64,000 nt of DNA from Sulfitobacter sp. (GTDB lineage Bacteria; Pseudomonadota; Alphaproteobacteria; Rhodobacterales; Rhodobacteraceae), in contig JBDVSG010000159.1 of the NCBI GenBank assembly GCA_039967155.1, positions 10,020 through 74,019 of the forward strand. Reading direction: 5' to 3'. This document shows, in pieces, positions 1 to 62,125 of this stretch (positions are counted from its first letter, which is position 1; each line of letters opens with the position of its first letter). The notes below the pieces were generated by a model. The model was not told the DNA's origin. It worked only from the letters and a program-made list of their open reading frames with translations, and searched no databases. The position numbers and the translations under genes were made by a program.

Positions 1-528
1 GGCCGTCAGGGCCAACACATCCGACCCGATCGGCAAAATCGGTCCATGGGCTGAATAATTATACGCCGTTGATCCCGCAGGCGTGGCAACCAACGCCCCA
101 TCGCAGACCAGCTCTTCCATCCGCAGCCGGTCATCCACAGTGACCTGCAACTTTGCCGCCTGAGGACCCTGCCGCAGCAACGCCACCTCATTCAACGCCA
201 ACCCCTGCGAGACACTGCCATCCACATGGGTGGCCTTCATCGACAACGGATTGATGACCGCGACCTCTGCGGCCTTTAGCCGTGCGCGCAGATCTGATTC
301 GGCATAGGCATTCATCAAAAATCCGATGGTCCCGCGATTCATACCATAGACCGGCGCCGTCAATGCCTGCGTCCCATGCAGCGTTTGCAGCATAAATCCG
401 TCGCCGCCCAGCGCCACGATCACATCCGCCTGTTCGGCAGGTACATTCCCATACCGCCCGATCAATGCCGCCCGCGCGGTCTGCGCAACGGGGGTGCGGC
501 TGGCCAAAAAGGCTATTTTCTGTGGCAT
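1..528 (-). CDS. nadK: NAD kinase, 5' part of gene (C-terminus lies beyond window start)
   Basis: Reverse translation from ATG (rc of 526-528) gives [16 protein letters not shown]...[16 protein letters not shown]...[11 protein letters not shown]...[19 protein letters not shown] and NRGxxGFL motifs match NAD kinases. The ORF runs off the window edge, so it is absent from the ORF track. Confidence 0.85.
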
Positions 529-2544: not shown

Positions 2545-2732
2545 AGCACCGCCAAAAGGACCGAGGCATCTATGCCGTCTGGCAACACCAGATCCGGCAT
2601 CCGCAAGCCTCCCCTTCCCAGCGCCCAACACAGGAAACCTGTGATCTTACGCAACGCCGCTCTAGACAACCTTTCCCAAGCAAGACACAAAAGACAAACT
2701 GTCTATCTACAAGCCATATTTTGGGAACCTCC

Positions 2733-3110
2733 ATGAAAAAATCCGCATTAATTCTCATCGGGCTGCTCGCCGCGCTGCACTTCTATATCGCGTGGTTCGA
2801 GATATTCGCATGGACGTCCCGTGGGCCTGCGATTTTTGACACATTGCCCGCAGATCTTTTTGCGCAAACCACCCAATTGGCCGCCAACCAAGGCATCTAT
2901 AACGTGTTCCTTGCGGTCGGGCTGGTCTGGTCGTTGTTGATCAAGGACATCAAATGGCAATTCAACATCGCGGCGTGCTTTTTGGGCTTTGTCGCCGTTG
3001 CAGGGATCGTCGCTGCGCTGACGATTGCGCTGAAATCCGGCCTGCCGCAATTCGCCCCTGCCAGCATCGCGCTGGCCCTGCTGTTCGCCTCAAAAGAGAA
3101 AACCAGCTAA
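2733..3110 (+). CDS. DUF1304-like small membrane protein
   Basis: MKKSALILIGLLAALHFYIAWFEIFAWT...LAANQGIYNVFLAVGLVWSLL. Four hydrophobic helices. Family assignment is from memory of the DUF1304 pattern. Confidence 0.7.
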   Translation: MKKSALILIGLLAALHFYIAWFEIFAWTSRGPAIFDTLPADLFAQTTQLAANQGIYNVFLAVGLVWSLLIKDIKWQFNIAACFLGFVAVAGIVAALTIALKSGLPQFAPASIALALLFASKEKTS

Positions 3111-3140
3111 ATCCAAATTCTGTATAATAGCGAGCATGCC

Positions 3141-3539
3141 ATGATCATTCACCCCGCTGGTTCCCGCCCCTCTGGCACAGGGTCCGCTGCCTATTTCACC
3201 GGCACGGTGCGCATGGATCCCCTGATCAGCACGCCAGCGCCCGCACGCCTGCGCGGGGTGACCGTAACGTTTGAAGCGGCCGCACGCACCGCGTGGCATA
3301 CCCATCCGTTGGGCCAGACAATCATCGTCACCGCAGGCGTTGGTTTGGCCCAGCGCGCGGGCGGCCCGATCGAAGTCATTCGCCCCGGCGATACCGTTTA
3401 CTTTGAACCGGATGAAAAACATTGGCACGGCGCCGCCCCAGAAGTCGCCATGACCCATATCGCCCTTCAAGAAGAACTGGATGGCGTTTCTGTCACATGG
3501 ATGGAGCACGTCACCGACGCGCAATATTCTCAGACGTAG
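3141..3539 (+). CDS. cupin domain protein
   Basis: Cupin motifs WHTHPLGQ...PGDTVYFEPDEKHWHGA in a 132-aa ORF. Confidence 0.8.
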   Translation: MIIHPAGSRPSGTGSAAYFTGTVRMDPLISTPAPARLRGVTVTFEAAARTAWHTHPLGQTIIVTAGVGLAQRAGGPIEVIRPGDTVYFEPDEKHWHGAAPEVAMTHIALQEELDGVSVTWMEHVTDAQYSQT

Positions 3540-3904
3540 CCGCGCCACCACAGCCAGACGATAAACAGCACCACCACCAACAGCAGATTGGCCACAATCG
3601 CGCCGGTCACACTGAGGATGCGACCCTTGCGCATCTCAACGACATCCAATTGCTCCAGATAGGCGCGCATGTGTTCAAAAGCCGCCGTGACCTGCCCCGC
3701 ATCCACCTGCCGCGCGGTTTTGGGATTATGCGCCAACATCTCGGCGCGCATCAACGCCGCGCCGCTTTTGCGCACCCCGCGCGGCAACCGCCGCCCTGCA
3801 CGGCGCAACGACTGCCGCAGATCGCGCCCCCGCACATCCAGCTTTTGTTGCAACAACCCACGCAACTTGCGCGACTTTGCCGCCATATCCTTGTCGGTAA
3901 TCAT
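3530..3904 (-). CDS. hypothetical protein with C-terminal membrane anchor
   Basis: ORF 3530..4117 trimmed to ATG 3904 (MITDKDMAAKSRKL...) so it no longer overlaps the hydrolase gene. Arg-rich with a C-terminal TM helix (IVANLLLVVVLFIVWLWW). No recognised domain. Confidence 0.45.
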   Translation of the reverse strand: MITDKDMAAKSRKLRGLLQQKLDVRGRDLRQSLRRAGRRLPRGVRKSGAALMRAEMLAHNPKTARQVDAGQVTAAFEHMRAYLEQLDVVEMRKGRILSVTGAIVANLLLVVVLFIVWLWWRGYV

Positions 3905-3958
3905 ACCCGCCTGTCTAAGGTGCTGGCGCTGCGCCCGCAATGGCGCTAGGCCTATGTC

Positions 3959-4720
3959 ATGCTTAGCTTTACCGAATTCGGGGATGCCTCCCCTGACATG
4001 CCGCCCCTTATCATCGCCCACGGCCTCTATGGGTCGGGACGCAACTGGGGCGTGATCGCCAAACGCCTGTCCGATACGCGCCGCGTCATTACCCCTGACA
4101 TGCGTAACCACGGCCACAGCCCGCGCGAAGCCTCAAACAACTATGACGATATGGCCGCCGATCTGGCCGAACTCATCGAACACATCGGGGCACCCGTCGA
4201 TCTATGCGGCCACTCTATGGGGGGAAAAGCTGCCATGGTCATGGCGTTGAAACACCCGCAGCTGCTGCGCAGGCTGGTCGTGGCCGATATCGCCCCTGTG
4301 GCCTATTCCCATTCTCAATCCCACCAAATTGCGGCCATGCGCGCTGTGGATCTGGCAAACCTCACCCGCCGCTCGGAGGCCGCCGAGCAGCTGGGCGCCC
4401 AAGGGGTTGAGCCCGCCTTACAAAGTTTCTTCACCCAATCGCTGGATGTCGCAGCCAAACGCTGGCGTCTGAATTTGGACGTGCTTGAGGCGGAAATGGA
4501 CAAAATCATCGGCTTTCCGGACGTTTCAGGCCAATTTGACAAGCCCGCCCTCTTCCTGACAGGCGCCGACAGCGATTACGTCACCCCGCAGGACCGCCCG
4601 CGCATCAAATCGCTGTTTCCTGCCGCGAAATTCGCCAAAATCCCGCAAACCGGCCACTGGCTGCACGCAGATCGGCCCCGCGCCTTCGAAGCTGCCCTGC
4701 GCACCTATCTTGACAGCTGA
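3959..4720 (+). CDS. alpha/beta hydrolase (YbfF-like esterase)
   Basis: 253-aa ORF with nucleophile elbow GHSMGG, PPLIIAHGLYGSGRNW N-terminus and C-terminal GHWLH. Confidence 0.88.
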   Translation: MLSFTEFGDASPDMPPLIIAHGLYGSGRNWGVIAKRLSDTRRVITPDMRNHGHSPREASNNYDDMAADLAELIEHIGAPVDLCGHSMGGKAAMVMALKHPQLLRRLVVADIAPVAYSHSQSHQIAAMRAVDLANLTRRSEAAEQLGAQGVEPALQSFFTQSLDVAAKRWRLNLDVLEAEMDKIIGFPDVSGQFDKPALFLTGADSDYVTPQDRPRIKSLFPAAKFAKIPQTGHWLHADRPRAFEAALRTYLDS

Positions 4721-5194
4721 CTAGCCGCCCAACTGCGGCCGCATCGCCTGATACACAACTGCCGCCGCCACATTCGCCAGATTGAGCGAACGCACCCGCT
4801 TGTCCAACATCGGCAGATTAAAGACGCGGTCCTCCATGCCCTCCAGCACCTCAGCCGGCAGGCCCGCAGATTCGCAGCCAAACACCAAATAGGCATCGCG
4901 CGGATAATCGGGTTCGTAAAACGTCTGCGCACCGTCTTCCTCATAGAAATGAAGCTGCCCCCGCTCGGGCTGGCGCGCGGCCAGAAAATGCGCCCAACTG
5001 TCATACTCCGACAGGTTTACATGTTTCCAATAGTCCGTCCCCGCACGGCGCACTGATTTCTCATCCAGCGAAAACCCGTAAGGTTTGATCAAGATCAGCT
5101 CGAGGTTCAGCGCCACACAAGTCCGCCCAATCGCCCCCGTATTATAAGGAATCTCAGGCGTCACGAGCACCATTTTCATCTTCGGTTCAGACAT
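4721..5194 (-). CDS. trmL: tRNA (cytidine/uridine-2'-O-)-methyltransferase, SpoU/TrmL type
   Basis: MKMVLVTPEIPYNTGAIGRTC...YLVFGCESAGLP...RSLNLANVAAAVVYQA are SPOUT motifs. Start choice (5194 vs 5179) is uncertain. Confidence 0.82.
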   Translation of the reverse strand: MSEPKMKMVLVTPEIPYNTGAIGRTCVALNLELILIKPYGFSLDEKSVRRAGTDYWKHVNLSEYDSWAHFLAARQPERGQLHFYEEDGAQTFYEPDYPRDAYLVFGCESAGLPAEVLEGMEDRVFNLPMLDKRVRSLNLANVAAAVVYQAMRPQLGG

Positions 5195-5340
5195 AACAAC
5201 AACCCGCTTTCTCAGAGGCAAAGGCAAAACCACCTACCCATTCCCGCCCTCCTACCCCGTCACGGGGGGCACAAACAACGCAAACCTGCTGGTTCATTCA
5301 ACTGACGCAGTGGGCGAAACTGATGGACGCAGTACTTTAG

Positions 5341-5493
5341 TCTTTAAGAAAAGATGAATGTTTGAATGAGCACCTGTTCGACAGCCTACGCCTTGCCCAC
5401 AATTTAATGGCGGCATGGTGGAAAGGCTTCAAACACTACCGTCCACATTTTAGCCGCGCTGTAGGACACCAGCGGAACATGTTAGCCGGTTAA
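5341..5493 (+). pseudogene. C-terminal remnant of an IS3/IS481-type DDE transposase (rve_3 region)
   Basis: Frame reads SLKKDECLNEHLFDSLRLAHNLMAAWWKGFKHYRPHFSRAVGHQ*, matching the DECLNxxxFxSLxxAxxxIxxWxxxYNxxRPHSSLG transposase tail. No upstream catalytic region. Confidence 0.7.
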
Positions 5494-5861
5494 AACGTGG
5501 ACCAACACCTGAACAGAACCAATCCAAACTGGCGGGATAAATGGGGAGCAGGTCCCCTCGCGCTCACTATCGTATTCGCCACAGAGGGCTCGTTTAGGAC
5601 CTTCGCTGCATTTGCAGCTTCTATATGATATAATGCGAAATCAGCGTCTGGATTTCGCCTCAGTCTGTTCACGTCTGATCACAGGTCGGTGTGGCTGATT
5701 GATTTTTACCTGTGGGAATGTTCGAAGCAAACACGACCGAAGGAAAATCTTACACTGATCGACCGCTAGCAGGCCTACATCCCCAAACTGGCGCTAACCG
5801 TCGGTAAGCCCGACGAAAATGTAGACAAAAAGGAACTGTGGATGATGAAAGAACGTGCCCA

Positions 5862-42798: not shown

Positions 42799-44001
42799 AT
42801 GAGTGAAGAAGCGGCAAGAGACGATGGTGAGACGATAGGCCTATTCGAGCCTTTGATGGTTAGTGAAGGCTCTCCAAAGCGCCGCGAATTGAGTGATTTA
42901 GCACTCGACTTAGCGACTACTTCTGCGCGCTTTTCCAGTGGCTTACCTGAATCCATCGCGGACGCGCTGGCTGGTCTGATACGTTCGACGAACTGCCATT
43001 ACAGCAACCTGATCGAAGGACACAACACACACCCCATCGATATTGAGAGGGCGTTGAATGACGACTACAGCGTTGATCCAAAAATGCGTGATTTACAACT
43101 CGAAGCCAAAGCGCACATCACTGTTCAAAAATGGATTGATGGCGACGGGCTGGGAGGGCGCCCGACTGAGCCAGGCATGATCAGAGAAATGCACCGCCGT
43201 TTCTGTGAGTTGCTGCCATCCGATCTACTCTTTGTGGAAATGCCATCGACTGGCGAGAAGATTCCAGTGGTGCCGGGTAAACTGAGGACGAGAGATGTTG
43301 AAGTTGGACGCCATGTGCCGATCAGTCCAGGTTCAGTTCCACGATTTCTTGACCGTATGCATGGCGCTTACCAACATGCTGGATGCATTGAGGCCATTCT
43401 CGCTGCAGGGTGCGCGCACCATCGTCTGTTATGGGTCCACCCATTTCTCGATGGGAATGGGCGTGTGGCGCGTTTGATGTCTGATGCCATGCTCAAGAAC
43501 GCGCTCGACACTAAAGGGCTTTGGTCTGTTGCGCGTGGCCTCGCGCGCAACGAAGCAGAATACAAACGCCATCTTTCCGCTTGTGATCAGCCTCGCCGGG
43601 GTGATCGAGATGGGCGCGGCACGTTAAGCGAAGCCGCGCTTGCTGATTTTACAGCATTTTTCCTTACACTCTGCATAGATCAGATCAAATTCATGGAAGG
43701 TTTGATGAAGCCTGATCGCCTTCGGGATCGCATTTTGATTTGGGCAGAAGAAGAAATACGTGCGGGAACTTTGCCAGCAAGATCAGACGTAGTCTTACGC
43801 GCTGTGTTATTGCAAGGCTCAATAACCCGTGCAGACGTTGTTGCTCTTCTAGGAGTAACTGAAAGAACGGCGCGCCGCGTGACCTCAGCTTTGCTTGAGA
43901 ATGGCGCGCTTCAATCAGAAAGCACACGCGCACCTCTACAACTCGCCTTTCCAGCAAAGCTCGCAGGACGGTGGATGCCAGGTCTCTTCCCTGACGAATA
44001 G
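42799..44001 (+). CDS. Fic family protein (AMPylase-type, with N-terminal inhibitory helix and C-terminal winged helix)
   Basis: Fic motif HPFLDGNGRVAR at 43438-43473. N-terminal S-N-L-I-E-G fits the [ST]xxxE[GN] auto-inhibition motif. Confidence 0.88.
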   Translation: MSEEAARDDGETIGLFEPLMVSEGSPKRRELSDLALDLATTSARFSSGLPESIADALAGLIRSTNCHYSNLIEGHNTHPIDIERALNDDYSVDPKMRDLQLEAKAHITVQKWIDGDGLGGRPTEPGMIREMHRRFCELLPSDLLFVEMPSTGEKIPVVPGKLRTRDVEVGRHVPISPGSVPRFLDRMHGAYQHAGCIEAILAAGCAHHRLLWVHPFLDGNGRVARLMSDAMLKNALDTKGLWSVARGLARNEAEYKRHLSACDQPRRGDRDGRGTLSEAALADFTAFFLTLCIDQIKFMEGLMKPDRLRDRILIWAEEEIRAGTLPARSDVVLRAVLLQGSITRADVVALLGVTERTARRVTSALLENGALQSESTRAPLQLAFPAKLAGRWMPGLFPDE

Positions 44002-50365: not shown

Positions 50366-50647
50366 CTAGGGGGAGTGGCCAATTTGTCTAGTTGTTGGGA
50401 ATAGTGTCAGGTTCCGATTTCGGGTGAGCATACTCCAAAGACCCCGTGGCTTCAAAAGCATGATGGCAACAGAAATTAGCCCCAGAATGATCATGTACCA
50501 ACTGCCAAGATCCGCCAGAAACTCCCTCAACACGAAGAACAATATGCAGCCAATGATTGGACCCTCAAGCGTGCCAATACCGCCGATCCCGACAATAAAA
50601 ATGACCAAAATAGACCAATCATTGACGCTAAAGGCAGCCTCCGGTGT
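50366..50647 (-). pseudogene. C-terminal fragment of a branched-chain amino-acid ABC permease (LivM/LivH-like)
   Basis: ...ILVIFIVGIGGIGTLEGPIIGCILFFVLREFLADLG...LLKPRGLW is a typical Liv permease tail. It is fused in-frame to an IS orfA stub inside track ORF 50366..50830. Confidence 0.6.
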
Positions 50648-50815
50648 GATCCTGATCTTTTCTTCGGATGAATATTGCTTGCGCGTTGCACGCTTGATGT
50701 CTTTGACGATCTTCTCGCCGGGGCTCTGCGTTGTCTTTCTCATCGTCCACTCCTCAGTGGCTATGATGAGCAACAAACACTCTCTTAGCAAACACAGCCA
50801 TTTGGACCCATAGGC
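50648..50815 (-). pseudogene. left end plus first 32 codons of an IS3-family orfA (remnant)
   Basis: From ATG 50743: MRKTTQSPGEKIVKDIKRATRKQYSSEEKIRI. The upstream about 70 nt parallels 42127-42195. Confidence 0.6.
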
Positions 50816-50861
50816 GCTGACGTCAGACAAGGTCTGCTTTTTGTGGGCGCAACAGTTTCGT

Positions 50862-52326: not shown

Positions 52327-53328
52327 TCAGTAGTTCATTTCTTCCTGAAACCGAAAGTCGCTTTGCAAACAGTACTTAATCGACAGAGCGGCGTTCAAAG
52401 CAGCCACATGCTGCCATTCATCGCTCTTATCGCTGTCGGCATAGTCACAACCAGCCCGAAACACGAGCCACTCTACATTTGCCAAAACACAAGACGTCGC
52501 GAAGCCCGAGGCTTCCATTTCAACCATTGTAATAAGTCTGTCAATCTCATCCGATTGCTCCTTAAAGCCTCCGTCCTTTCTTAACGTTTCTCCGGAAAGT
52601 AATTTCTTTACACTGAATTTAGGATCAAAAGTTTCGAGTTGTTCCTTCGACGGTACAAGCCCATCAATCTGCGGTATCAATGAAAAAATCTCGTCTTTGA
52701 AAGAAGACTGCTCGGAATAACGATTTCGTCGATCTGCGTGTGTGGAAATCAAGTTGTTCATTTCCTCAGAGATATTATCCACCTTGTTTTCAGGCAGCTT
52801 CCCGTCAACAGTTTCGACGCCGCCAGCAACATAGGTAACTGATGAAAACGCATTGCAAGTGCCTAAAGCTTGGTCATTACGAGTTCCTGCAATGCCACTT
52901 AGTATTACTAATCTCGGTTTGTGTCTTTCTATGAGTTGGCTTGTTCGAGGACCGGAGTTAAGATTCATTTGGCTATTGATTGTAGTAAGGACAACGCTGA
53001 GTGGCGCTAGCCCGCCACGTCTGGATAAGTCAAACTCAAATACACTCAACGATTTCACTCGGGAGGTCGGATTTTCAATATCTTGCCCGAAAGCTAACGC
53101 CGCCGAGCGCAATTCAAGTGGTATCGGGGTTACGACTAAGACATCGCAGCCAAAATCGGTATCACTTTTGACCTCAAAGTTCTCCTCTTCGTGCATGCGT
53201 GCGACCAGATCTTCGTTCAATAGGTTGTGCATCCCAAAAACGTCGGTATCCATATCCGCAAGTATTGCTCGCCCTGGCGGGCTCCGCATTAGAGAGCTCA
53301 AAGCTTTCAAGAATAACTGTTCAGACAA
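52327..53328 (-). CDS. PNP_UDP_1 (nucleoside phosphorylase / nucleosidase) family protein
   Basis: 333 aa. Fold-typical strands DVLVVTPIPLELRSAALAF, RLVILSGIAG, MVEMEASGFA, LVFRAGCDYAD. TTG start 2 nt after the upstream stop, with an AGGTGG SD 7 nt upstream. Confidence 0.72.
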   Translation of the reverse strand: MSEQLFLKALSSLMRSPPGRAILADMDTDVFGMHNLLNEDLVARMHEEENFEVKSDTDFGCDVLVVTPIPLELRSAALAFGQDIENPTSRVKSLSVFEFDLSRRGGLAPLSVVLTTINSQMNLNSGPRTSQLIERHKPRLVILSGIAGTRNDQALGTCNAFSSVTYVAGGVETVDGKLPENKVDNISEEMNNLISTHADRRNRYSEQSSFKDEIFSLIPQIDGLVPSKEQLETFDPKFSVKKLLSGETLRKDGGFKEQSDEIDRLITMVEMEASGFATSCVLANVEWLVFRAGCDYADSDKSDEWQHVAALNAALSIKYCLQSDFRFQEEMNY

Positions 53329-53330
53329 TT

Positions 53331-55121
53331 TTAGGCCACCTGGATTTCATGCGAAGGGGTGGGAATTGTATAGAGCGGACGAATTGGATATCGTACCCGT
53401 AGCTCTCTGTCGGTCACCTTAAGAAGGGCTACTCCCAGCACTATGTCTAGGCCGATTTCGTCCGATAGAAGGTCCAAGCACTCAAAAGTAGCTCCTGATA
53501 CAATTAGCTCATCGACTACTATCGCCTGCATTCTTCGATCGCCCTTCAAGCCGGAAACCTCTCTCGCATACTTGACTTGCTCAACTAGGCGATCGATTTC
53601 GTCCAAGTGTTGTGCCAGCACCCCGGAAAGAGTAAATTTGCCCCTTTTGACATCGGTGAGATCATTCAGAAGGCATCGCGATACTGCGATCGATCTTTCG
53701 TTAGAAGTGCCTACGATGTGTTTAGATATTCGGCGCGCGGCGTCTTCGTTGACACACAATATTAAGTCGTTTTCTGATAGATTTCTTGAAATACAGGCCC
53801 GTAACTGGCTCCTGATGGCTAGAGTGAAGAACGCCAGGTTCCACTTTGTCATATTCCTAAAGTTTGGTACCGCGGGCAAAAATTCTCTATCTGGTCCGTA
53901 TTCTTCTGGTACAAATCCTGCTTCGATCATCATCGCCCAAATCTCTGCAGCTGAAAGCTTGTACTTCTTATGCGGATAACGGAGCACATCAATGTCAATA
54001 GGTAACGCCTTCCACATATCTTGGACCAAGGATGTATTCGTAACAACTGCAGCTTCATAGTGCAGATCAATCTGCATCACAGCATCTCCCTGCAGCCGTA
54101 ATACTAGTTTGCGAACGTTCTCGTCCACATATTTGCTATTACCCTCGTCAATTGTGCCGAGGCACCATGCAAATTCCGGCGGAGATGCGATGCCGCCTAG
54201 TATTGAGACAAACTGACCACCGGACCTAACTACAGAACAAAATACCGCATATTTTTTGTCGCTAACATCATGCAGCGAAACCTGATCGTGCCGTTGTATC
54301 GGCACAAACTCAATTCTCGAGTCGGCTAGCTTACTGGCATCATTAATAATTGTCGAGAACCACTCACGATCAGACAGATAAAATATCACGCTTATGTCGT
54401 TGGCTGCACAATGCTCGATCTTTTTCTGACAGAGCTGCAAGGCGTATTCACCACCCCTTGAAAAATCGTATGTAAAGGCAAATTTCTCCCCCACCGTCTG
54501 GCCGGTAAACAGACCTGGAACTCTAACGATAGTTGCCTCGTATTTTTTTTGAACGTTTGCAGTTTGCTCAAGGTAACTCTCAACGAAATCCTTCTTAACA
54601 TCTTCGCCAACTATATGAGCGGTCGATTTGTCTGTCGTTATGTTACCGGATGTAGCGTCTCCAGTAAATATAACGAAACCTTTCCCAGACCTCTTTATTT
54701 GGTCTAGTGCGGCAGCTTCAGGTGCTCCCTCAAGTAAAGAGCCGGGGCAAACAACAATAATTGCGCCGAGGCCACTTGCCAGCTTACTTTCGCAAAAATC
54801 AGCAATCCCAAAAAATATTTCTGGGTCAATTGGGTCAAATTGATTTGGCCCGCCTAAATCAAGAATTACATTTTCATTTGAACCTAGATCAGCCAGTGAC
54901 GCTTCCAACAGCTGCTTTACAGCACTACTAGCCATCCTAAAATTTGTTGAAATCCACTCAATCGGCAATATAGTTTGTAGGTTTGAAAGCGGGAATATCC
55001 GACTTGCTGCGTGCAATATCGATGCTTGTGCGCGGTCACCTAATTCGCGTCGAGTAGACTGCCCGAATCGTATAGGAAGAATATAATGTGTGCCACTTTG
55101 GTCAAATTCGAATGTTTTCAT
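53331..55121 (-). CDS. large protein with C-terminal type-I phosphoribosyltransferase (PRTase) domain
   Basis: 596 aa. PRPP-binding loop MQAIVVDELIVSGATFECL near the C-terminus. A possible second degenerate PRT-like segment (YAVFCSVVRSGGQF). The start ATG overlaps the upstream stop (ATGA at 55118-55121). Confidence 0.68.
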   Translation of the reverse strand: MKTFEFDQSGTHYILPIRFGQSTRRELGDRAQASILHAASRIFPLSNLQTILPIEWISTNFRMASSAVKQLLEASLADLGSNENVILDLGGPNQFDPIDPEIFFGIADFCESKLASGLGAIIVVCPGSLLEGAPEAAALDQIKRSGKGFVIFTGDATSGNITTDKSTAHIVGEDVKKDFVESYLEQTANVQKKYEATIVRVPGLFTGQTVGEKFAFTYDFSRGGEYALQLCQKKIEHCAANDISVIFYLSDREWFSTIINDASKLADSRIEFVPIQRHDQVSLHDVSDKKYAVFCSVVRSGGQFVSILGGIASPPEFAWCLGTIDEGNSKYVDENVRKLVLRLQGDAVMQIDLHYEAAVVTNTSLVQDMWKALPIDIDVLRYPHKKYKLSAAEIWAMMIEAGFVPEEYGPDREFLPAVPNFRNMTKWNLAFFTLAIRSQLRACISRNLSENDLILCVNEDAARRISKHIVGTSNERSIAVSRCLLNDLTDVKRGKFTLSGVLAQHLDEIDRLVEQVKYAREVSGLKGDRRMQAIVVDELIVSGATFECLDLLSDEIGLDIVLGVALLKVTDRELRVRYPIRPLYTIPTPSHEIQVA

Positions 55122-56473
55122 TGTTTTTCTTGCTCGGGGATACTTATGCTAATCAAGTTTCCCAAGAATTTTGGTAAATTATTTGGCAACTCTTGGATAT
55201 CCACAACATAGTCATGTCTCTTAATTTTAGAGCCATTGAGTTTCTTGCTTTTTTTACCCTTCGTTACTCTTATGATTACGTTGGAAGTGCGGATGATTAC
55301 CTTTCCTCCAAAGTTTGCCACCGCAGTATCCAGCAGCAAGTACAAACCCATCCCAACTGATGCCAACCTCGGGTCGTCCTCAGTTGTTTCCTCGGTACTT
55401 GCATGGCCAAACAGCGTTGGTGACATGCTTACAAAAGGCTGTAATACAAATAGTAGCTTTTCACTAATATGACTTGACGGTTCGGCATCGAGATCAGAAC
55501 CGACAACTCTATCAATCGATTGACTTTTACTTTCCGAGTTCTTCCACTTTAAACGATAGCTCCGAAAGTACTTTCCGGGGCTACTTGTTCGGAATGTCTT
55601 TTTTGTCGCTAGATTTTCTTCAATTAGATCTAACAGTGAGCGGCCGTTGTCCCAGTAATGAACTACTGCGCTTTTACTTGCTTGCTTTTTGTTTCTTTGC
55701 GTCTTGTTGAATGGCAACGTGAGTTGTTGGCTTCTGTCGTATATGTATCTGGTGTGAGTAGCTGTTTGTACTATCTCCGCGGAGGGATGACGCAAGGCAT
55801 TGAAAACCGCCTCAAAGATCACACGTGCTGAAAAGTAGCGTACATCAATTCCAAGATCGCGCTCTAATAGTGTCTTAACGTTATGGTTTTGCCAGAAGCG
55901 TTTCTCATCGTTGGCGAGCTCTGGTTTCTCATGGACATTTGACGGGACCTTTATGGTTCGGAAACCGAAAAAATTGGGTCGGATCGATTCGTCATCGTCA
56001 CCATCGTCGTTCGTCGGAATTTTGTAGTGAGTTGGAAATTCGTCTAGGTCAAAAGTTGACTGCGAATCGTTCGGAAAAAAATACTTTTGTCTCGTCTCGT
56101 CATCACTAAATCGATACATTCGTCTACCGGTTGCAGCTTTGAGAGCGTCGTCAAAATTCCAAACTCTCATAATGTCCCGAACAGATTTTTTCTCAGGTAG
56201 CGAAATCGTTGTGGAGATGCCATTGCGATCCCATGCAGTAAGGTAAGAAATTAGAACTTGTGCGCTATAGCAATCCATGAACGTCACGTGAGTCAGATCG
56301 ACATGGATGCTTTGCACAGCACCACGGTTCTTCCGGAGCGTTTTAGCCAACTGCAGCTCAAACTGGCTGCCTACCATCGCTTCCTGAATGCTTAAAAGCA
56401 TGTAGGACCTGTTGGGTTTGGAGAATCTTCGGCTGATAACTTTGTCATAATGCAAAGGTAAGTAGGCGAACAT
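55118..56473 (-). CDS. STAS-domain / GHKL (SpoIIAB-RsbW-like) ATPase-kinase fusion protein
   Basis: 451 aa. STAS-like SIHVDLTHVTFMDCYSAQVLISYL...VRDIMRVWNFDDAL. GHKL N-box FEAVFNALRH, DNG, GMGLYLL. No HisKA H-box. Start (56473 vs the internal Met, codon 25 at 56401) is uncertain. Confidence 0.62.
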   Translation of the reverse strand: MFAYLPLHYDKVISRRFSKPNRSYMLLSIQEAMVGSQFELQLAKTLRKNRGAVQSIHVDLTHVTFMDCYSAQVLISYLTAWDRNGISTTISLPEKKSVRDIMRVWNFDDALKAATGRRMYRFSDDETRQKYFFPNDSQSTFDLDEFPTHYKIPTNDDGDDDESIRPNFFGFRTIKVPSNVHEKPELANDEKRFWQNHNVKTLLERDLGIDVRYFSARVIFEAVFNALRHPSAEIVQTATHTRYIYDRSQQLTLPFNKTQRNKKQASKSAVVHYWDNGRSLLDLIEENLATKKTFRTSSPGKYFRSYRLKWKNSESKSQSIDRVVGSDLDAEPSSHISEKLLFVLQPFVSMSPTLFGHASTEETTEDDPRLASVGMGLYLLLDTAVANFGGKVIIRTSNVIIRVTKGKKSKKLNGSKIKRHDYVVDIQELPNNLPKFLGNLISISIPEQEKQ

Positions 56474-56535
56474 GAGATAAACTCAACGAAATTCGCCCAA
56501 TGGTTCAACGATCCTGTTAAATTTAGACTGATCTG

Positions 56536-57060
56536 TTACGTTCGCGCCACTTCGTATCGCATGATGTGTCGCTCCACAGTACGGAAAATCACATATACAC
56601 CTAGCACGCAAACAATCCAGCTGGCTATGTTGGGTAAAATCTGCAGGCCACTGCTCCATGCGATTTGAGTGCAAAAAACTGATACGCCGCCAAACGCGAT
56701 TACATCAATGATTGCTTGAATTCGCTTGCGCAGCCTTCGCCAGGCCTCCTTTTCAATCTGCGCTTCCCAAACAAGCTCATTGGGATATTGTGCTTTGAGA
56801 AAGTCGCGGATGCCTGATATTTTTACTTCATTTTCTAAATATAAGTGGCCGAGTAGGCTCGCGACGAACGCCAGTATTATCCAAGCATCGACTGGCGATG
56901 CTGGAAGCAATGCGTATCCGCCTAAACCACCGTAAGCTGCAAATGCCGCGTAAAACAGACCATCTCGAAATTTGATCCGATCCCTTTGTTCCGCTTTCAC
57001 TTCCGCAAATTCTGCTAGTTTCCATTCTGTGTTTGCCACCGTAGTTTTATCTCCCGTCAT
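56536..57060 (-). CDS. 4-TM membrane protein, unknown function (first gene of the operon)
   Basis: ORF 56536..57138 trimmed to ATG 57060 (MTGDKTTVANTEW...). Two helix pairs separated by a charged about 45-aa loop. 62 nt upstream of the next gene. Confidence 0.5.
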   Translation of the reverse strand: MTGDKTTVANTEWKLAEFAEVKAEQRDRIKFRDGLFYAAFAAYGGLGGYALLPASPVDAWIILAFVASLLGHLYLENEVKISGIRDFLKAQYPNELVWEAQIEKEAWRRLRKRIQAIIDVIAFGGVSVFCTQIAWSSGLQILPNIASWIVCVLGVYVIFRTVERHIMRYEVART

Positions 57061-58175: not shown

Positions 58176-58838
58176 TCAACGCTGAAAACTCACTGGTTTA
58201 GGGTACAAGAGTTCGATTTCTTGCTGTGTTGTTGGAATACCTTCAATCGGCCACCAAAGATGATCCGCATTAGGGATAATCGTCAGAAAGAAGGGCTCAA
58301 CCTGAGTGCTTCTGTCGAAGTAGTTTAGTGCGCCAAAACAGATAACCTGTTCCAATTCGGGATCAAAGAGGAGAACTTGAGGTTTGAATTCAATTTGTAG
58401 AGCAGCGCTTGGAGCAACAATGCTCTCCTTGGTTGACCAGAACTCGACTTCTAAACCGTCATTTTCTTTTGAATGCCCCATGGCATTGTCCAGTCCAAAG
58501 GTGCACCTTAAATTCGAGCCAAAATTTGCTGACTTGTTGCCAAAATTGTAGGCGCTTAGATTGATTATCTTGCGTTCACTATCGAAGTACCCCGAAAGAT
58601 TAACTTCTAAGTCCGGGTAAAACTCATCATAGAAGTCCAATAGTGTTCGACTTCCAAGTGATGCGACGGACAGTAATGCGACTAACAGGGCAAGCGACGT
58701 ATTTGAAATACCAACGTGCCTTCGCCAGTTCTGCCAAGAACCGCATTCCAAGCAGACTTTCTGATCCGTTTTTAGGGAAGAACCACACGCCCAGCAAACT
58801 TTTTCCTTCAACGCTCTTCTCCGAAAATATTGGTTCAT
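58176..58838 (-). CDS. zinc-ribbon / single-TM / beta-rich ectodomain protein, unknown function
   Basis: 220 aa. CWACG...CLECG zinc ribbon, TM helix SLALLVALLSVASLG, then an about 150-aa non-repetitive domain. Confidence 0.55.
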   Translation of the reverse strand: MNQYFRRRALKEKVCWACGSSLKTDQKVCLECGSWQNWRRHVGISNTSLALLVALLSVASLGSRTLLDFYDEFYPDLEVNLSGYFDSERKIINLSAYNFGNKSANFGSNLRCTFGLDNAMGHSKENDGLEVEFWSTKESIVAPSAALQIEFKPQVLLFDPELEQVICFGALNYFDRSTQVEPFFLTIIPNADHLWWPIEGIPTTQQEIELLYPKPVSFQR

Positions 58839-58931
58839 AAGCTATTTGAAATAAAGTCTCATGTGTTGCTGAATAACTGATCACGGACAAAATCACTACT
58901 TCCTTTTGGCCCCAAATCCCGCAGAATAGTC

Positions 58932-59010
58932 CAAAGTCTGCTTTGGTGAGCTGCACCACAGCACCAACCATCTAGGTCAAGGTCAGCTTCGGGCCGTTCA
59001 TTCGATCGTG
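58932..59010 (+). repeat. dispersed repeat copy A
   Basis: caaagtctgctttggtgagctgcaccacagcaccaaccatctaggtcaaggtcagcttcgggccgttcattcgatcg. Confidence 0.55.
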
Positions 59011-59057
59011 AGCGGCAGCGACCCGCAGGAAGCGGCCCTCACGAGGAGTCCAAGTTT

Positions 59058-59903
59058 TCAGCTTCCCTGACTGGCAGCCGCAACCTTCGCTTTCTTGTGT
59101 TCTTGCGCTTCTTTGTTCCGCAAGCGGCTAGCGTTCTTCGCCAACTCCACAGCTGTTTGAAGAAAGATTTCAACCAGCTGAAGCCGGTCTTCTTTGTTTT
59201 CCCAAAGATCAATGGTGGCCCAAAGCACCCCGAGCGTTGTCTTGGACAGCTCGCGTAAATTATACTTCATGTCATCGGGACCGGCCATGTAGCTATTATC
59301 GGTCGCATACATAAGTACATTCCGCCCGTTTGCCATATCGTGAAGATACCTTAGAGCGGCGGCTTCTTCAGAATACATTGCATAGATTTCTTGCGCGAAT
59401 GAATAAACCAGTTCGCCATCAGCACCGCTCATATTAAGAATTTTCAAGGAAGCAGGTGCATAACTGGCTTTGTCTTCATCGTTAAATCGGACAATGATCC
59501 GGTCTTTGTCTTTAGAATATGCCAGTGCGAGCTTGTAGTCCTTACTAACTCTATTAGTCACCTCCGTTAAGACCCAGCTTAGCGCCGACTTGTAACTGTG
59601 ATTACCGATGTTGAATTGATCTGTAAGGTCTGCGTATTGGCCGACGGATGCGCAGCCGACGAATGCCACCACCGCCTCTTCGAGAGCATGTGTCAGGCAG
59701 AACGTGGCCGGAACGCTGAATCTGTATCGTCTATCCAACGATGAGTGGAGCGTCGAAATGCCGCCCGCCCAATACAACGCACTCAAAGCATTGTTTGCAC
59801 GGAACTTAGCTTCATCTGGCAAATCGCCAATTCTGGCCCGCACCCACAATGCCATCTCGCTCTCCACCATGCGGAGCAATTCGGGGTGAATTTTCGTGGA
59901 CAT
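59058..59903 (-). CDS. hypothetical protein (281 aa), no recognised domain
   Basis: Clean ORF with moderate AT bias. Lys/Ala-rich C-terminal tail. Flanked by direct copies of the dispersed repeat. Confidence 0.55.
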   Translation of the reverse strand: MSTKIHPELLRMVESEMALWVRARIGDLPDEAKFRANNALSALYWAGGISTLHSSLDRRYRFSVPATFCLTHALEEAVVAFVGCASVGQYADLTDQFNIGNHSYKSALSWVLTEVTNRVSKDYKLALAYSKDKDRIIVRFNDEDKASYAPASLKILNMSGADGELVYSFAQEIYAMYSEEAAALRYLHDMANGRNVLMYATDNSYMAGPDDMKYNLRELSKTTLGVLWATIDLWENKEDRLQLVEIFLQTAVELAKNASRLRNKEAQEHKKAKVAAASQGS

Positions 59904-60268: not shown

Positions 60269-62125
60269 GTGGACTCTATGAAATCAGATCACCGCAAGCG
60301 CCCCTTAAAGTTGCAGCCTTCACACAAGTCTGGAGAAACAGCCATGTCCCTGGTTTCTCGGATCGCAGCAAGTTTTGGCACTGACGCAAAAACCTTTTGC
60401 CTCCACAAGGGCACGTCCTTCCTTCGAGTGATTAGTGGTGACCAGGCCGCGTTCAACAAGTTGAAACGCTTCGGTGTTTCAATTCCGGACGGGGTTCTCT
60501 TCTGGAGCCCTGTTCGAAAGCCGTCGAGTATACGTGAGTTTATAGGCCACCGCTTCCCCAGCAAGGTAATTTTAGGTTCTGAGGTAAGAGGATGCCCGGT
60601 ATGCCTTCGTCAGGATGCTAAGACTTCAGACGCCCCAGCCCATGTAGCAATGACCATGCAGGGGAACTGGTTAGTACCGCATGTCACCCTGTGCCTCAAA
60701 CATCAGCATCCGCTTGTACCGCTCTGGCATGACACGGTCCCTGCTTCACGCTACGATTCCGCACCCCACCTCGAAATCCTCACACATGACGTTTTATCCG
60801 GTTTACTGGATCAGAAATCTCGAGATGCAACAGATTTCGATATTTGGATAGAAGCTCGGCTTTGCGGTGAGCAAGGTAGCGGATGGTTGGATCAAATGCC
60901 CCTCCACCCTGCGGCAAATTTCTGCTTCATGCTGGGGAGCGCGCTTCTGCGTCATGAAATGGAGACCCCGACTTACGCAGCCAAGGAGGATCGTTGGGCA
61001 GTGTATCAGATGGGGTATGCGGTTGCCCGTCATGGACAATCAAATGTGGCGACTGCTTTTAGAAACCTTCAAACACTTCCTGGCGGTCCTCATGACGGTC
61101 CGAAGAAAATTTTTCCGGTTCTCTACGAGAGACTGGCCCACTATTACGCTGATAATGCGGATTACGAGCCGTTCCGGGACCTTCTACGTCAGCATATGTT
61201 AGAAACTTGGCCTTTGGGCGTTGGCGATGAGCTACTTGGTCAGCCGGTCACAGAACGCAAAACTCACTCCGTTCTGACAGCCTCCCGAACCACAGGCATT
61301 GATCAGCGCCGCCTGCGGAAGTTGCTGGCTGCAGTGAACATTGTAAGGGACGCTGAATCAGGTCTATCCGATGCTTGGGAAGTCTTTGATGCTGAGCTTG
61401 CCAAGCCAATTCTGAACGAGCTTTCTACTCTGGTTGATGCAAAGGCCTTTGCTTCCCTAATTGGGGCAACTCGCTCACAGTTTGATAGGCTGGTAAAGGA
61501 TGGTGTCATAAGGCCGGAATTAAGTGGAACGGACCTTAAAACCACCTGGAGTCCTTCTGAGGGGGCCAAATTTTTAGATAGCCTTCGTATGGGTGCTGTT
61601 CAGCTAAGGCATGCAAAACAAAATTGGGTGCATCTCTCGAAATCAGCCCAACGGCTCAAAATTGGCCCAGGCTCAATAGTGAGAGCAATTCAGGATGGCC
61701 AGATCAAAAGAGTTGGCAATCATGTTTGTTTTGTTGGGTACGCCGCAATTTTCGTTGATCACGATGAGGTGGTAAATGTGCTCAGTACCGACGCTCCCGA
61801 TGCGCAAAGTATTGAAATCTTTGCTAAGACCGTTGGCATCAACCAACCAAGCAGAATGCGTCGTCTTATAGCCAACGGACATACGTCTGCCACGGTGATA
61901 CAAAACCCCAAAACAAGAGCTCAGCAAAACTATCTGACAGTAGAGGACGCCGACGCATTTCATTCCAAGTTCATGACACCGCGGACGATGGCCAAGGAAT
62001 ATGGACGCAGCTGGCAAAGTCTTGGCGCAGAGTTAAGGTCGAAGGGTGTAAATCCGTTTTCCCCAAATGGAGAAGTTTATGGCAGCCTATTTTTGCGGAG
62101 CGATGTAGCCAAAGAAATCCAGTAA
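60269..62125 (+). CDS. tniQ: TniQ family protein (Tn7 TnsD/TniQ-type target selector)
   Basis: 618 aa. N-terminal TniQ pattern LQPSHKSGETAMSLVSRIAASFG and zinc-finger-like RGCPVCL...LCLKHQHPL. Long helical C-terminal region. Start could be 60278. Confidence 0.82.
   Translation: MDSMKSDHRKRPLKLQPSHKSGETAMSLVSRIAASFGTDAKTFCLHKGTSFLRVISGDQAAFNKLKRFGVSIPDGVLFWSPVRKPSSIREFIGHRFPSKVILGSEVRGCPVCLRQDAKTSDAPAHVAMTMQGNWLVPHVTLCLKHQHPLVPLWHDTVPASRYDSAPHLEILTHDVLSGLLDQKSRDATDFDIWIEARLCGEQGSGWLDQMPLHPAANFCFMLGSALLRHEMETPTYAAKEDRWAVYQMGYAVARHGQSNVATAFRNLQTLPGGPHDGPKKIFPVLYERLAHYYADNADYEPFRDLLRQHMLETWPLGVGDELLGQPVTERKTHSVLTASRTTGIDQRRLRKLLAAVNIVRDAESGLSDAWEVFDAELAKPILNELSTLVDAKAFASLIGATRSQFDRLVKDGVIRPELSGTDLKTTWSPSEGAKFLDSLRMGAVQLRHAKQNWVHLSKSAQRLKIGPGSIVRAIQDGQIKRVGNHVCFVGYAAIFVDHDEVVNVLSTDAPDAQSIEIFAKTVGINQPSRMRRLIANGHTSATVIQNPKTRAQQNYLTVEDADAFHSKFMTPRTMAKEYGRSWQSLGAELRSKGVNPFSPNGEVYGSLFLRSDVAKEIQ

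Follow-up and report, generated by a model that had tools for sequence, protein, structure and literature searches.

What do four closely packed, AT-rich genes on the minus strand of a Sulfitobacter sp. contig do, and do they belong together? The genes lie in a 64,000-nucleotide stretch of contig JBDVSG010000159.1 (assembly GCA_039967155.1, positions 10,020 to 74,019 of the forward strand), which we call the window. An initial annotation, made from the sequence alone, took them for a four-gene operon encoding a membrane protein, a STAS-GHKL kinase fusion, a phosphoribosyltransferase (PRTase)-domain protein and a PNP-family nucleosidase, and proposed that they form an unnamed nucleotide-targeting defence system. 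We refer to these genes, in the same order, as g1, A, B and C. We find that A, B and C are a conserved trio that leaves out g1, and consider the trio quite likely to be a defence or conflict system of some kind. Our preferred reading, to which we give a probability of roughly 0.4, is by analogy with the recently described anti-phage operon VapKSC: the trio would be a three-gene, kinase-gated abortive-infection system, with A and B as its control core and an exchangeable effector.

That the trio is a unit is clear from comparative genomics. The order A-B-C is kept in every related locus that is readable at these positions (13 loci; numbers with L denote individual loci below), and this synteny persists down to about 16-23% identity of B. 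The sampled loci of B relatives have a uniform layout, with an A homologue of 395-480 aa upstream, then B, then a PNP homologue of 345-376 aa; A is the first gene in all related loci. The ATGA stop/start overlap at 55118-55121, already noticed in the initial annotation and read again in the sequence here, recurs as a 4-nt A/B overlap in L001-L005, L007, L008 and L009, and implies, to judge from these junctions, that translation of A and B is coupled. Tight packing and co-occurrence of the three genes are together far beyond chance. We considered the third gene of L021 as a new type of effector and ruled this out: its product still has the GG, EME and D motifs and is a PNP fold, if a very divergent one.

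The family is rare. Homologues of A form 11 clusters among 5.8 billion proteins and close homologues of B only four; a genome scan with A returned one locus, truncated, among 185,579 species genomes. Scans of viral and metagenome collections with A, and plasmid tblastn with A and B, gave no match. An exhaustive profile search with B reached 105 representatives at E<=1e-3, mostly of 560-600 aa, to which a word-indexed search with a 40-sequence B alignment added nothing.

The fourth gene does not share this conservation. Protein g1 has 174 aa and 3-4 hydrophobic segments and is predicted to be a membrane protein; no homologue of it stands beside the related trios in any of the 13 loci (tblastn at E<=1 and a hidden Markov model tally). 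PADLOC and NCBIfam returned nothing for it, the best Pfam match had an E value of 0.34, and its lone match, with a hypothetical protein of a Streptomyces plasmid, was weak (28% identity, 7e-5). We therefore reject the four-gene operon and keep its A-B-C part. One could argue that g1 and the trio nonetheless work together in this particular genome, with g1 as a lineage-specific accessory effector or sensor. The gene does share a strand with A, only 62-134 nt upstream of it, its G+C content is similarly low (0.474), and the minus strand between them has no terminator-like site; the gap on the other hand leaves room for a separate promoter, and with neither a counterpart in the 13 loci nor a significant family match we regard such a partnership as very unlikely. 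The range of the gap reflects the start codon of A. A gap of 62 nt had been reported; all A homologues begin at M25 of the window protein, so the true start is probably at 56401 and the gap about 134 nt.

One pointer to function is protein C. It matches the PADLOC model for the CBASS 'Effector PN-superfamily' at 8.4e-24, over the PNP part only (profile positions 224-492 of 506), PADLOC PDC-M60C at 3.6e-12 and Pfam PNP_UDP_1 at 4.4e-6, the last of these passing the Pfam cut-off. Its matches to the NCBIfam models for MtnN (8e-6) and futalosine hydrolase (about 1e-5) are both far below their cut-offs, and the immune effector model scores 18 orders of magnitude better than that of housekeeping MtnN. 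Nine divergent homologues share five invariant residues (E72, M271-E272, R291 and D295), and T129 is invariant among them as well; we take the five to be the counterparts of E12, M173-E174, R193 and D197 of Escherichia coli MTAN. The PNP fold first assigned by motif is thus confirmed, in the form of a stand-alone PNP domain with an N-terminal extension of about 60 aa. The model scores favour placing C in the immune (Cap17) clade over the DeoD/Udp/MtnN housekeeping clade. The defence-associated PNP clade cleaves ATP and dATP, and the hosts given for it are CBASS, Avs, prokaryotic Argonaute (pAgo), DRT8 and Detocs, with the present trio not among them (Rousset et al. 2023, 10.1101/2023.01.24.525353). 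By analogy, C is the predicted effector of the trio and is expected to cleave the N-glycosidic bond of ATP or dATP.

Natural gene fusions tell us how this effector relates to its neighbours. Protein P0075 (956 aa) joins a B region (residues 1-560) to a C-family PNP (residues 647-952; E 5e-54, Pfam 6.8e-14); the fusion occurs in two independent assemblies (L018 and L019), with an A-family gene upstream of each (1.6e-55). Protein P0112 (759 aa, in L020) instead carries an N-terminal TIR_2 domain (1.7e-16) ahead of a B-like region (7e-73), again with an A-family gene upstream (1.2e-41), and the remaining 370 bp of that locus hold no PNP gene. Because the B::PNP and TIR::B fusions each follow an A-family gene, we conclude that A and B are the conserved core, and that the effector can be exchanged and has a physical link to B. 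This weakens the initial proposal of a switch that gates two nucleotide-processing enzymes: B is kept when TIR takes the place of PNP and is fused to the effector in two lineages, and so looks like part of the control core and not like a second effector.

The surroundings of the related trios point in the same direction as C. In a Mesorhizobium (L001), a short pAgo (PADLOC 1e-202) and its TIR-APAZ partner (1e-136) lie at 2581-5501, 4.5 kb from the trio. In L012 the trio directly adjoins a type I restriction-modification (R-M) system in which a Septu is embedded (PtuA/PtuB, 2e-107 and 4e-68); a Gp49/helix-turn-helix (HTH) pair follows. A 314-aa RVT_1 protein with a neighbouring HTH gene is convergent with the A and B::PNP locus in L018 (5345-6575), and likewise in L019; we note it as a possible retron or defence-associated reverse transcriptase. 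In L021 a large serine recombinase adjoins the trio. With known defence systems beside it in related loci, a defence role for the trio is well supported by genomics.

A possible objection is that PNP_UDP_1 and PRTase domains are classic salvage enzymes, and that the trio might be nothing more than a regulated purine-salvage or nucleoside-recycling operon, a PRTase and a nucleosidase under a kinase-type regulator, that happens to reside on a genomic island. The weak similarity of C to MtnN and futalosine hydrolase could be read in this way, as could the position of L010 among housekeeping genes. We disfavour this non-immune explanation and hold it to be highly improbable. First, the family is rare and patchy, with its 4-11 close protein clusters and its single species-genome locus. 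Second, C prefers the immune effector model by the margin given above and fails the NCBIfam cut-offs. Third, the TIR swap and the fusions speak against salvage. Fourth, the neighbours include pAgo, Septu, R-M and toxin-antitoxin genes, and no other salvage genes are adjacent.

Protein A is where the comparison with known kinase modules begins. Its STAS domain, correctly named at the outset, matches Pfam STAS at 3.5e-5, just above the cut-off, and 9 of 13 family members have STAS matches; Foldseek on an AlphaFold2 model of moderate quality (predicted TM-score (pTM) 0.68) returned the STAS domains of RsbS, SpoIIAA and SLC26 proteins at the top with probability of about 1. At the position of SpoIIAA-S58 the A family has Cys, Met or Pro, and A's own STAS is therefore not a conserved phospho-acceptor. 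The close-family profile also matched PDB 8fz9 ('TIR', E 0.02) over the end of the STAS domain and the linker (A residues about 75-125, minus strand 56120-56190); with a more diverse A profile the E value rose to 0.37, and this match is probably due to chance.

The GHKL half of A took more effort to recognise. Across 13 divergent members E197/N201/H205 (N-box), D251/G253 (G1) and G350-M-G-L (G2) are invariant, and the order of predicted secondary structure is compatible with a Bergerat fold. Two lineage-specific inserts interrupt the domain, one of about 20 aa that separates the N-box from G1 and one of about 75 aa that separates G1 from G2. A full-length Pfam scan of the family for GHKL found HATPase_c_2 in one of 13 members only, at E 0.23. 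With the larger insert excised, HATPase_c or HATPase_c_2 matched in three of seven members; with both excised, one or the other was the top Pfam match in 10 of 10 (E 3e-5 to 7e-3, profile positions 8-97 of 111), with the excision done by hand and every match below the Pfam cut-off. Sequence and profile searches of PDB found no GHKL in A, and neither did Foldseek, whose top 50 matches were all STAS. hhalign of A with SpoIIAB and RsbW gave short N-box and G2 matches only. The family shows no match to HisKA in Pfam. The GHKL assignment of the initial annotation is thus supported once the inserts are removed, below the Pfam cut-off, and finds no echo in the structural and PDB searches.

A STAS-GHKL kinase at the head of an immune operon has a precedent, contrary to the earlier impression that no known system has a related partner logic. 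CapK (HTH-STAS-GHKL), with its partner CapS, and the three-gene anti-phage operon VapKSC have been described (Chambers et al., EMBO J 2026, PMC13373217). VapKSC is an experimentally validated operon of kinase, substrate-antitoxin and toxin: VapK is a STAS-GHKL fusion activated by single-stranded DNA, which phosphorylates the STAS antitoxin VapS and thereby releases the PIN toxin VapC (PMC13373217). Both CapK and VapK have Ser kinase activity. Other defence genes occur within 10 kb of about 36% of vapKSC operons, and the position directly downstream of an R-M system is a frequent one for capKS (PMC13373217).

We compared A with these kinases by means of a profile of seven members, namely CapK and VapK from the supplements of PMC13373217 and five plasmid homologues, which include an annotated VapKSC-type operon in Deinococcus. 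hhalign of the A family with this profile gave a single 270-column collinear alignment running from STAS to GHKL (score 33.6, E 0.0018), and the GHKL domain of A on its own scored 33.4 (E 5e-4). Column-shuffled controls scored 14-16 +/- 2.5 (maximum 23), block shuffles that scramble the order 20 +/- 3 (maximum 30.6), reversed controls 12.1 and 14.5, and an unrelated profile 11.7. Alignments of A with the single CapK and VapK sequences were weak. Together these comparisons suggest, with moderate and not conclusive force, that A is remotely related to the CapK/VapK kinases or, failing that, is their collinear analogue.

As an aside, the Deinococcus operon, on plasmid P5 of Deinococcus gobiensis (L013, 2833-4679), is annotated as encoding ATP-binding, STAS-like and PIN-domain proteins and is preceded by an HTH regulator; it is a VapKSC-type system outside the Proteobacteria.

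The likeness of the trio to VapKSC extends beyond A. In both, the first gene encodes a STAS-GHKL fusion, to which CapK adds an HTH domain; the three genes of VapKSC, which gives anti-phage protection, are ordered as kinase, middle protein and toxin; and STAS, N-box, G1 and G2 of A line up in order with the CapK/VapK profile. The differences are also plain. The similarity of A is remote (E of about 1e-3), and its GHKL domain holds the two large inserts. The middle protein B is a tandem PRTase-like protein of about 590 aa, whereas VapS is a STAS antitoxin of about 120 aa with a conserved Ser; the effector here is a PNP nucleosidase (or TIR), whereas VapC is a PIN RNase. No HTH or winged HTH protein, such as the CapS repressor, is present in the trio. 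We also compared the N-terminal domain of B with STAS: the E value was 0.043 (the control itself gave 0.009), with Pro at the phospho-site position. With 596 aa and a PRTase-like make-up, B as a whole is not a small STAS phospho-substrate.

A GHKL protein need not transfer phosphate. The anti-sigma GHKL proteins SpoIIAB and RsbW act both by sequestration and by phosphorylation. A might accordingly be a GHKL ATPase that works as an anti-sigma-like conformational clamp or partner switch, with a phage cue at the STAS/GHKL interface freeing B and C in the absence of phosphotransfer. We judge this to be unlikely. The lack of a conserved phospho-acceptor in the STAS domain of A and the scarcity of candidates in B or C are what such a clamp would lead one to expect, and the invariant E197 of the N-box is typical of hydrolysing GHL ATPases as well as of SpoIIAB/RsbW; the nearest characterised relatives of A, however, are the active kinases CapK and VapK, and two invariant residues, S/T300 in B and T129 in C, could serve as acceptors.

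Protein B represents a new family. The window protein has no significant match in Pfam, NCBIfam or PADLOC, and B founds a family of roughly 560-600 aa and about 105 clusters for which these databases hold no significant model. Its C-terminal loop AIVV-DE-LI-VSGAT (residues 533-545) fits the phosphoribosyl pyrophosphate (PRPP)-loop pattern of type I PRTases, which runs from four hydrophobic residues through an acidic pair and two more hydrophobic residues to S/T-G-x-T, and D537, E538, S/T542 and T545 are kept in 90-97% of 40 sequences. At this loop the family profile matches adenine phosphoribosyltransferase (APRT) in PDB at 3.8e-5; Foldseek likewise returns APRT (probability 1.0, TM-score of about 0.5) in spite of a poor structure model, and Pribosyltran is the sole recurrent Pfam family in B relatives (11 of 40 members). 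The PRTase that had been recognised by its PRPP loop is thereby upheld.

A feature that had gone unmentioned is a probable second PRTase-like domain. Over residues of about 195-335 the family profile matches the PRPP-loop region of HGPRT (E 0.007-0.1), and the corresponding regions of P0075, P0021 and P0060 give weak Pribosyltran/UPRTase matches; the two loop regions of B align with each other at E 0.01, a weak sign of internal duplication. In this first loop the acidic pair is lost and S/T300-G301 is nearly invariant. B is thus a probable, not proven, tandem PRTase-like protein whose first domain, the one around residues 195-335, is degenerate. Outside the two phosphate-binding loops, no Ser or Thr is conserved among the 40 sequences.

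Such conservation of a PRPP site raises the possibility that B is an enzyme. Activated by A, its PRTase could make a phosphoribosyl-derived signal for C, or it could be a co-effector, draining PRPP or blocking purine salvage, in which case adenine set free by C would not be recycled and purine metabolism would be disrupted in the manner of ShosT. In ShosTA, type III retrons, PsyrTA and Ophion, PRTase domains have indeed been proven or proposed to be effectors (PMC11961720; 10.1101/2025.09.30.679545), three of the 40 B-family members give marginal PADLOC matches to ShosT or PRTase_III-A, and both the canonical loop in 90-97% of divergent members and the APRT matches of profile and model fit an enzyme well. 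The remaining 37 members, however, have no PADLOC PRTase-effector match at all, and the acidic pair is missing from the first domain. The layout of B is moreover unchanged in L020, where TIR replaces PNP, and the role of B is therefore not tied to purine N-glycoside chemistry; and where B is covalently joined to C or to TIR, no diffusible signal is needed between them. An enzymatic B is to our minds a serious alternative, if still an unlikely one.

A different use of the same fold would be sensing. A and B may constitute a new infection sensor, in which the tandem PRTase-like module of B would read the phosphoribosyl-metabolite state of the cell (PRPP or a phage-altered nucleotide) and A would relay the outcome to PNP or TIR. 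This strikes us as doubtful.

Our preferred reading, the kinase-gated abortive-infection system, would work as follows. A would bind ATP and, by analogy with CapK and VapK, act as a kinase switched on by an infection cue, which for those two is single-stranded DNA. B, made in a fixed ratio with A by way of the ATGA coupling, would tether the effector or keep it inactive. A would then either phosphorylate B or change its conformation at the expense of ATP, and C would be released or activated. Freed C would deplete nucleotides, with ATP as its presumed substrate, and phage replication would stop. In one related lineage a TIR domain takes the place of C. The scheme draws on what is observed: the identity of the domains, the joint inheritance of the genes, the fusions, the exchange of the effector and the setting in defence islands.

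Several observations weigh against it. Since the STAS domain of A lacks the canonical phospho-serine and B has no conserved Ser/Thr off its loops, there is no obvious acceptor for a phosphorylation of the VapK-to-VapS type. The C-terminal PRPP loop of B is fully canonical and conserved, and an active enzyme fits this at least as well as a scaffold does; the structure model of B is also poor (pTM 0.31). The GHKL call on A consists of sub-threshold matches after manual removal of inserts, with Foldseek and PDB returning none. Finally, some loci have no recognisable defence neighbours: the trio of L010 sits beside rplM/rpsI, and that of the window has orphans and a solitary TniQ-domain gene around it.

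How does the trio relate to other named systems? The initial annotation had pointed out that the defining partners of Detocs, CBASS, ShosTA and retrons are missing, and none of these partners occurs in the trio. With Detocs and the other carriers of the immune (Cap17) PNP it shares a defence-type PNP-fold nucleosidase (C at PADLOC 8.4e-24, a PNP_UDP_1 fold with the MTAN-type catalytic set E72, E272 and D295), and with Detocs in particular an ATP-binding protein of the HATPase type upstream of the effector and abortive infection by nucleotide depletion as a logic. Unlike Detocs, A lacks the DHp domain of histidine kinases (no HisKA in Pfam), C has no receiver (no Response_reg), B is not a receiver either, there is no DtcB buffer protein, and the trio has no PADLOC Detocs match. 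Unlike other immune PNP carriers, it has no SAVED, CD-NTase, pAgo, NLR or reverse transcriptase partner; as to CBASS, none of A, B and C matches CD-NTase or SAVED, and C fits only the PNP part of the effector model.

B shares with ShosT, the type III retron PRTase, PsyrT and Ophion OpnC a type I PRTase fold, a PRPP loop and residence in defence operons. It differs in being three times larger, with two PRTase-like domains in addition to N-terminal and middle domains of unknown fold, and in being, genomically, a core or adaptor component and not a terminal toxin. The trio moreover lacks the DprA-like, reverse transcriptase, radical SAM or PHP partners of these systems, and window B matches none of the PADLOC models for the ShosTA and retron PRTases. 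Membership in PDC-M60, suggested by the PDC-M60C match of C, was rejected: neither A nor B nor any of 40 B-family members fits a component of PDC-M60, and only the effector domain is common.

PADLOC thus placed the effector domain of C and left A and B without a place or a named system, and in the literature we searched no paper describes this gene combination. The idea of an unnamed candidate defence system therefore holds up, in the sense that the genes of the trio are conserved together and found in defence islands, and that PADLOC 2.0 knows the trio by its effector domain only. What is of a known kind is the kinase-gated toxin module with an immune PNP effector; what is new is the middle protein family B and the combination.

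The coordinates of the locus are collected in Table 1. All four minus-strand open reading frames are present as first annotated, every quoted peptide motif was found in the translations, and the B/C junction reads as it had been given (TAA, two nucleotides, then a TTG start, with AGGTGG upstream). The trio has a G+C content of 45.2%, the window as a whole one of 52.4%, and the cat and tct genes, which had been put above 55% by eye, one of 53-54%; the figure of 18/60 for 55141-55200 is exact. The trio lies inside a low-GC stretch of about 10 kb (50.2-60.3 kb, 46.6% G+C). Promoter and terminator scans of the locus gave nothing above chance.

Table 1. Features of the g1-A-B-C locus (positions in the window)
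Feature	Position	Strand	Remarks
g1 (membrane protein gene)	56536-57060/57138	-	Open reading frame
Gene A, STAS-GHKL fusion protein	55118..56401	-	427 aa from M25; frame open to 56473 = 451 aa
STAS domain of A	56117..56401	-	Residues ~1-95, M25 numbering; Pfam and Foldseek
GHKL (Bergerat-fold) ATPase/kinase-like domain of A	55121..55894	-	Motifs, insert-excised Pfam, hhalign
A/B junction	55118..55121	-	ATGA stop/start overlap, read from sequence
Gene B	53331..55121	-	596 aa; core partner of A
Probable first, degenerate PRTase-like domain of B	54117..54539	-	Loop VFCSVVRSGGQF; assignment tentative
C-terminal PRTase-like domain of B	53334..53786	-	Canonical PRPP loop AIVVDELIVSGAT, residues 533-545
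B/C junction	53326..53341	-	AGGTGG 53336-53341, B stop TAA 53331-53333, 2 nt, C start TTG 53326-53328
Gene C, PNP/MTAN-fold nucleosidase	52327..53328	-	333 aa; predicted effector

The wider setting was first described as the cargo of a tniQ-bounded segment with orphan genes and a Fic gene as neighbours. A 618-aa TniQ-domain protein (Pfam 1.2e-11) is indeed encoded at 60269-62125 on the plus strand, between the island and a ribonucleotide reductase gene; the open reading frames scanned in 30-64 kb include no TnsA/B/C-like partner for it, and a Tn7-like cargo is not established. The orphans are there as well, but the Fic gene (42799-44001) is 8 kb off, beyond the higher-GC cat genes. No tRNA was found in the window.

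Two further features of the low-GC island deserve mention. On the minus strand at 50366-50830, an open reading frame with an N-terminus that by eye resembles OrfA of the IS3 family of insertion sequences (MRKTTQSPGEKIVKDIKRATRKQYSSEEKIRI) is joined to a tail like that of an ABC-transporter permease; judged in this way, it seems to be debris of an insertion at the island's left edge. Also on the minus strand, 58176-59903 holds an orphan pair, one protein of 220 aa that has a zinc ribbon at its N-terminus and one of 281 aa that matched nothing in Pfam or PADLOC; the pair could be a further accessory or defence candidate.

If the trio protects against phage, it would be an unnamed addition to the ATP-depletion branch of bacterial immunity, would extend the CapK/VapK principle of kinase gating to new effectors, and would introduce B, a family lacking a significant Pfam, NCBIfam or PADLOC model. 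The conserved PRPP site of B gives a handle on the question of how immune control comes to enlist the folds of metabolic enzymes, and the natural B::PNP and TIR::B fusions are ready-made constructs for asking who regulates whom. Were the sensor reading to prove true, a modular immune system would have a metabolic enzyme fold as its sensor, and the approximately 100 clusters around B, which no current database model covers, would be a new defence family.

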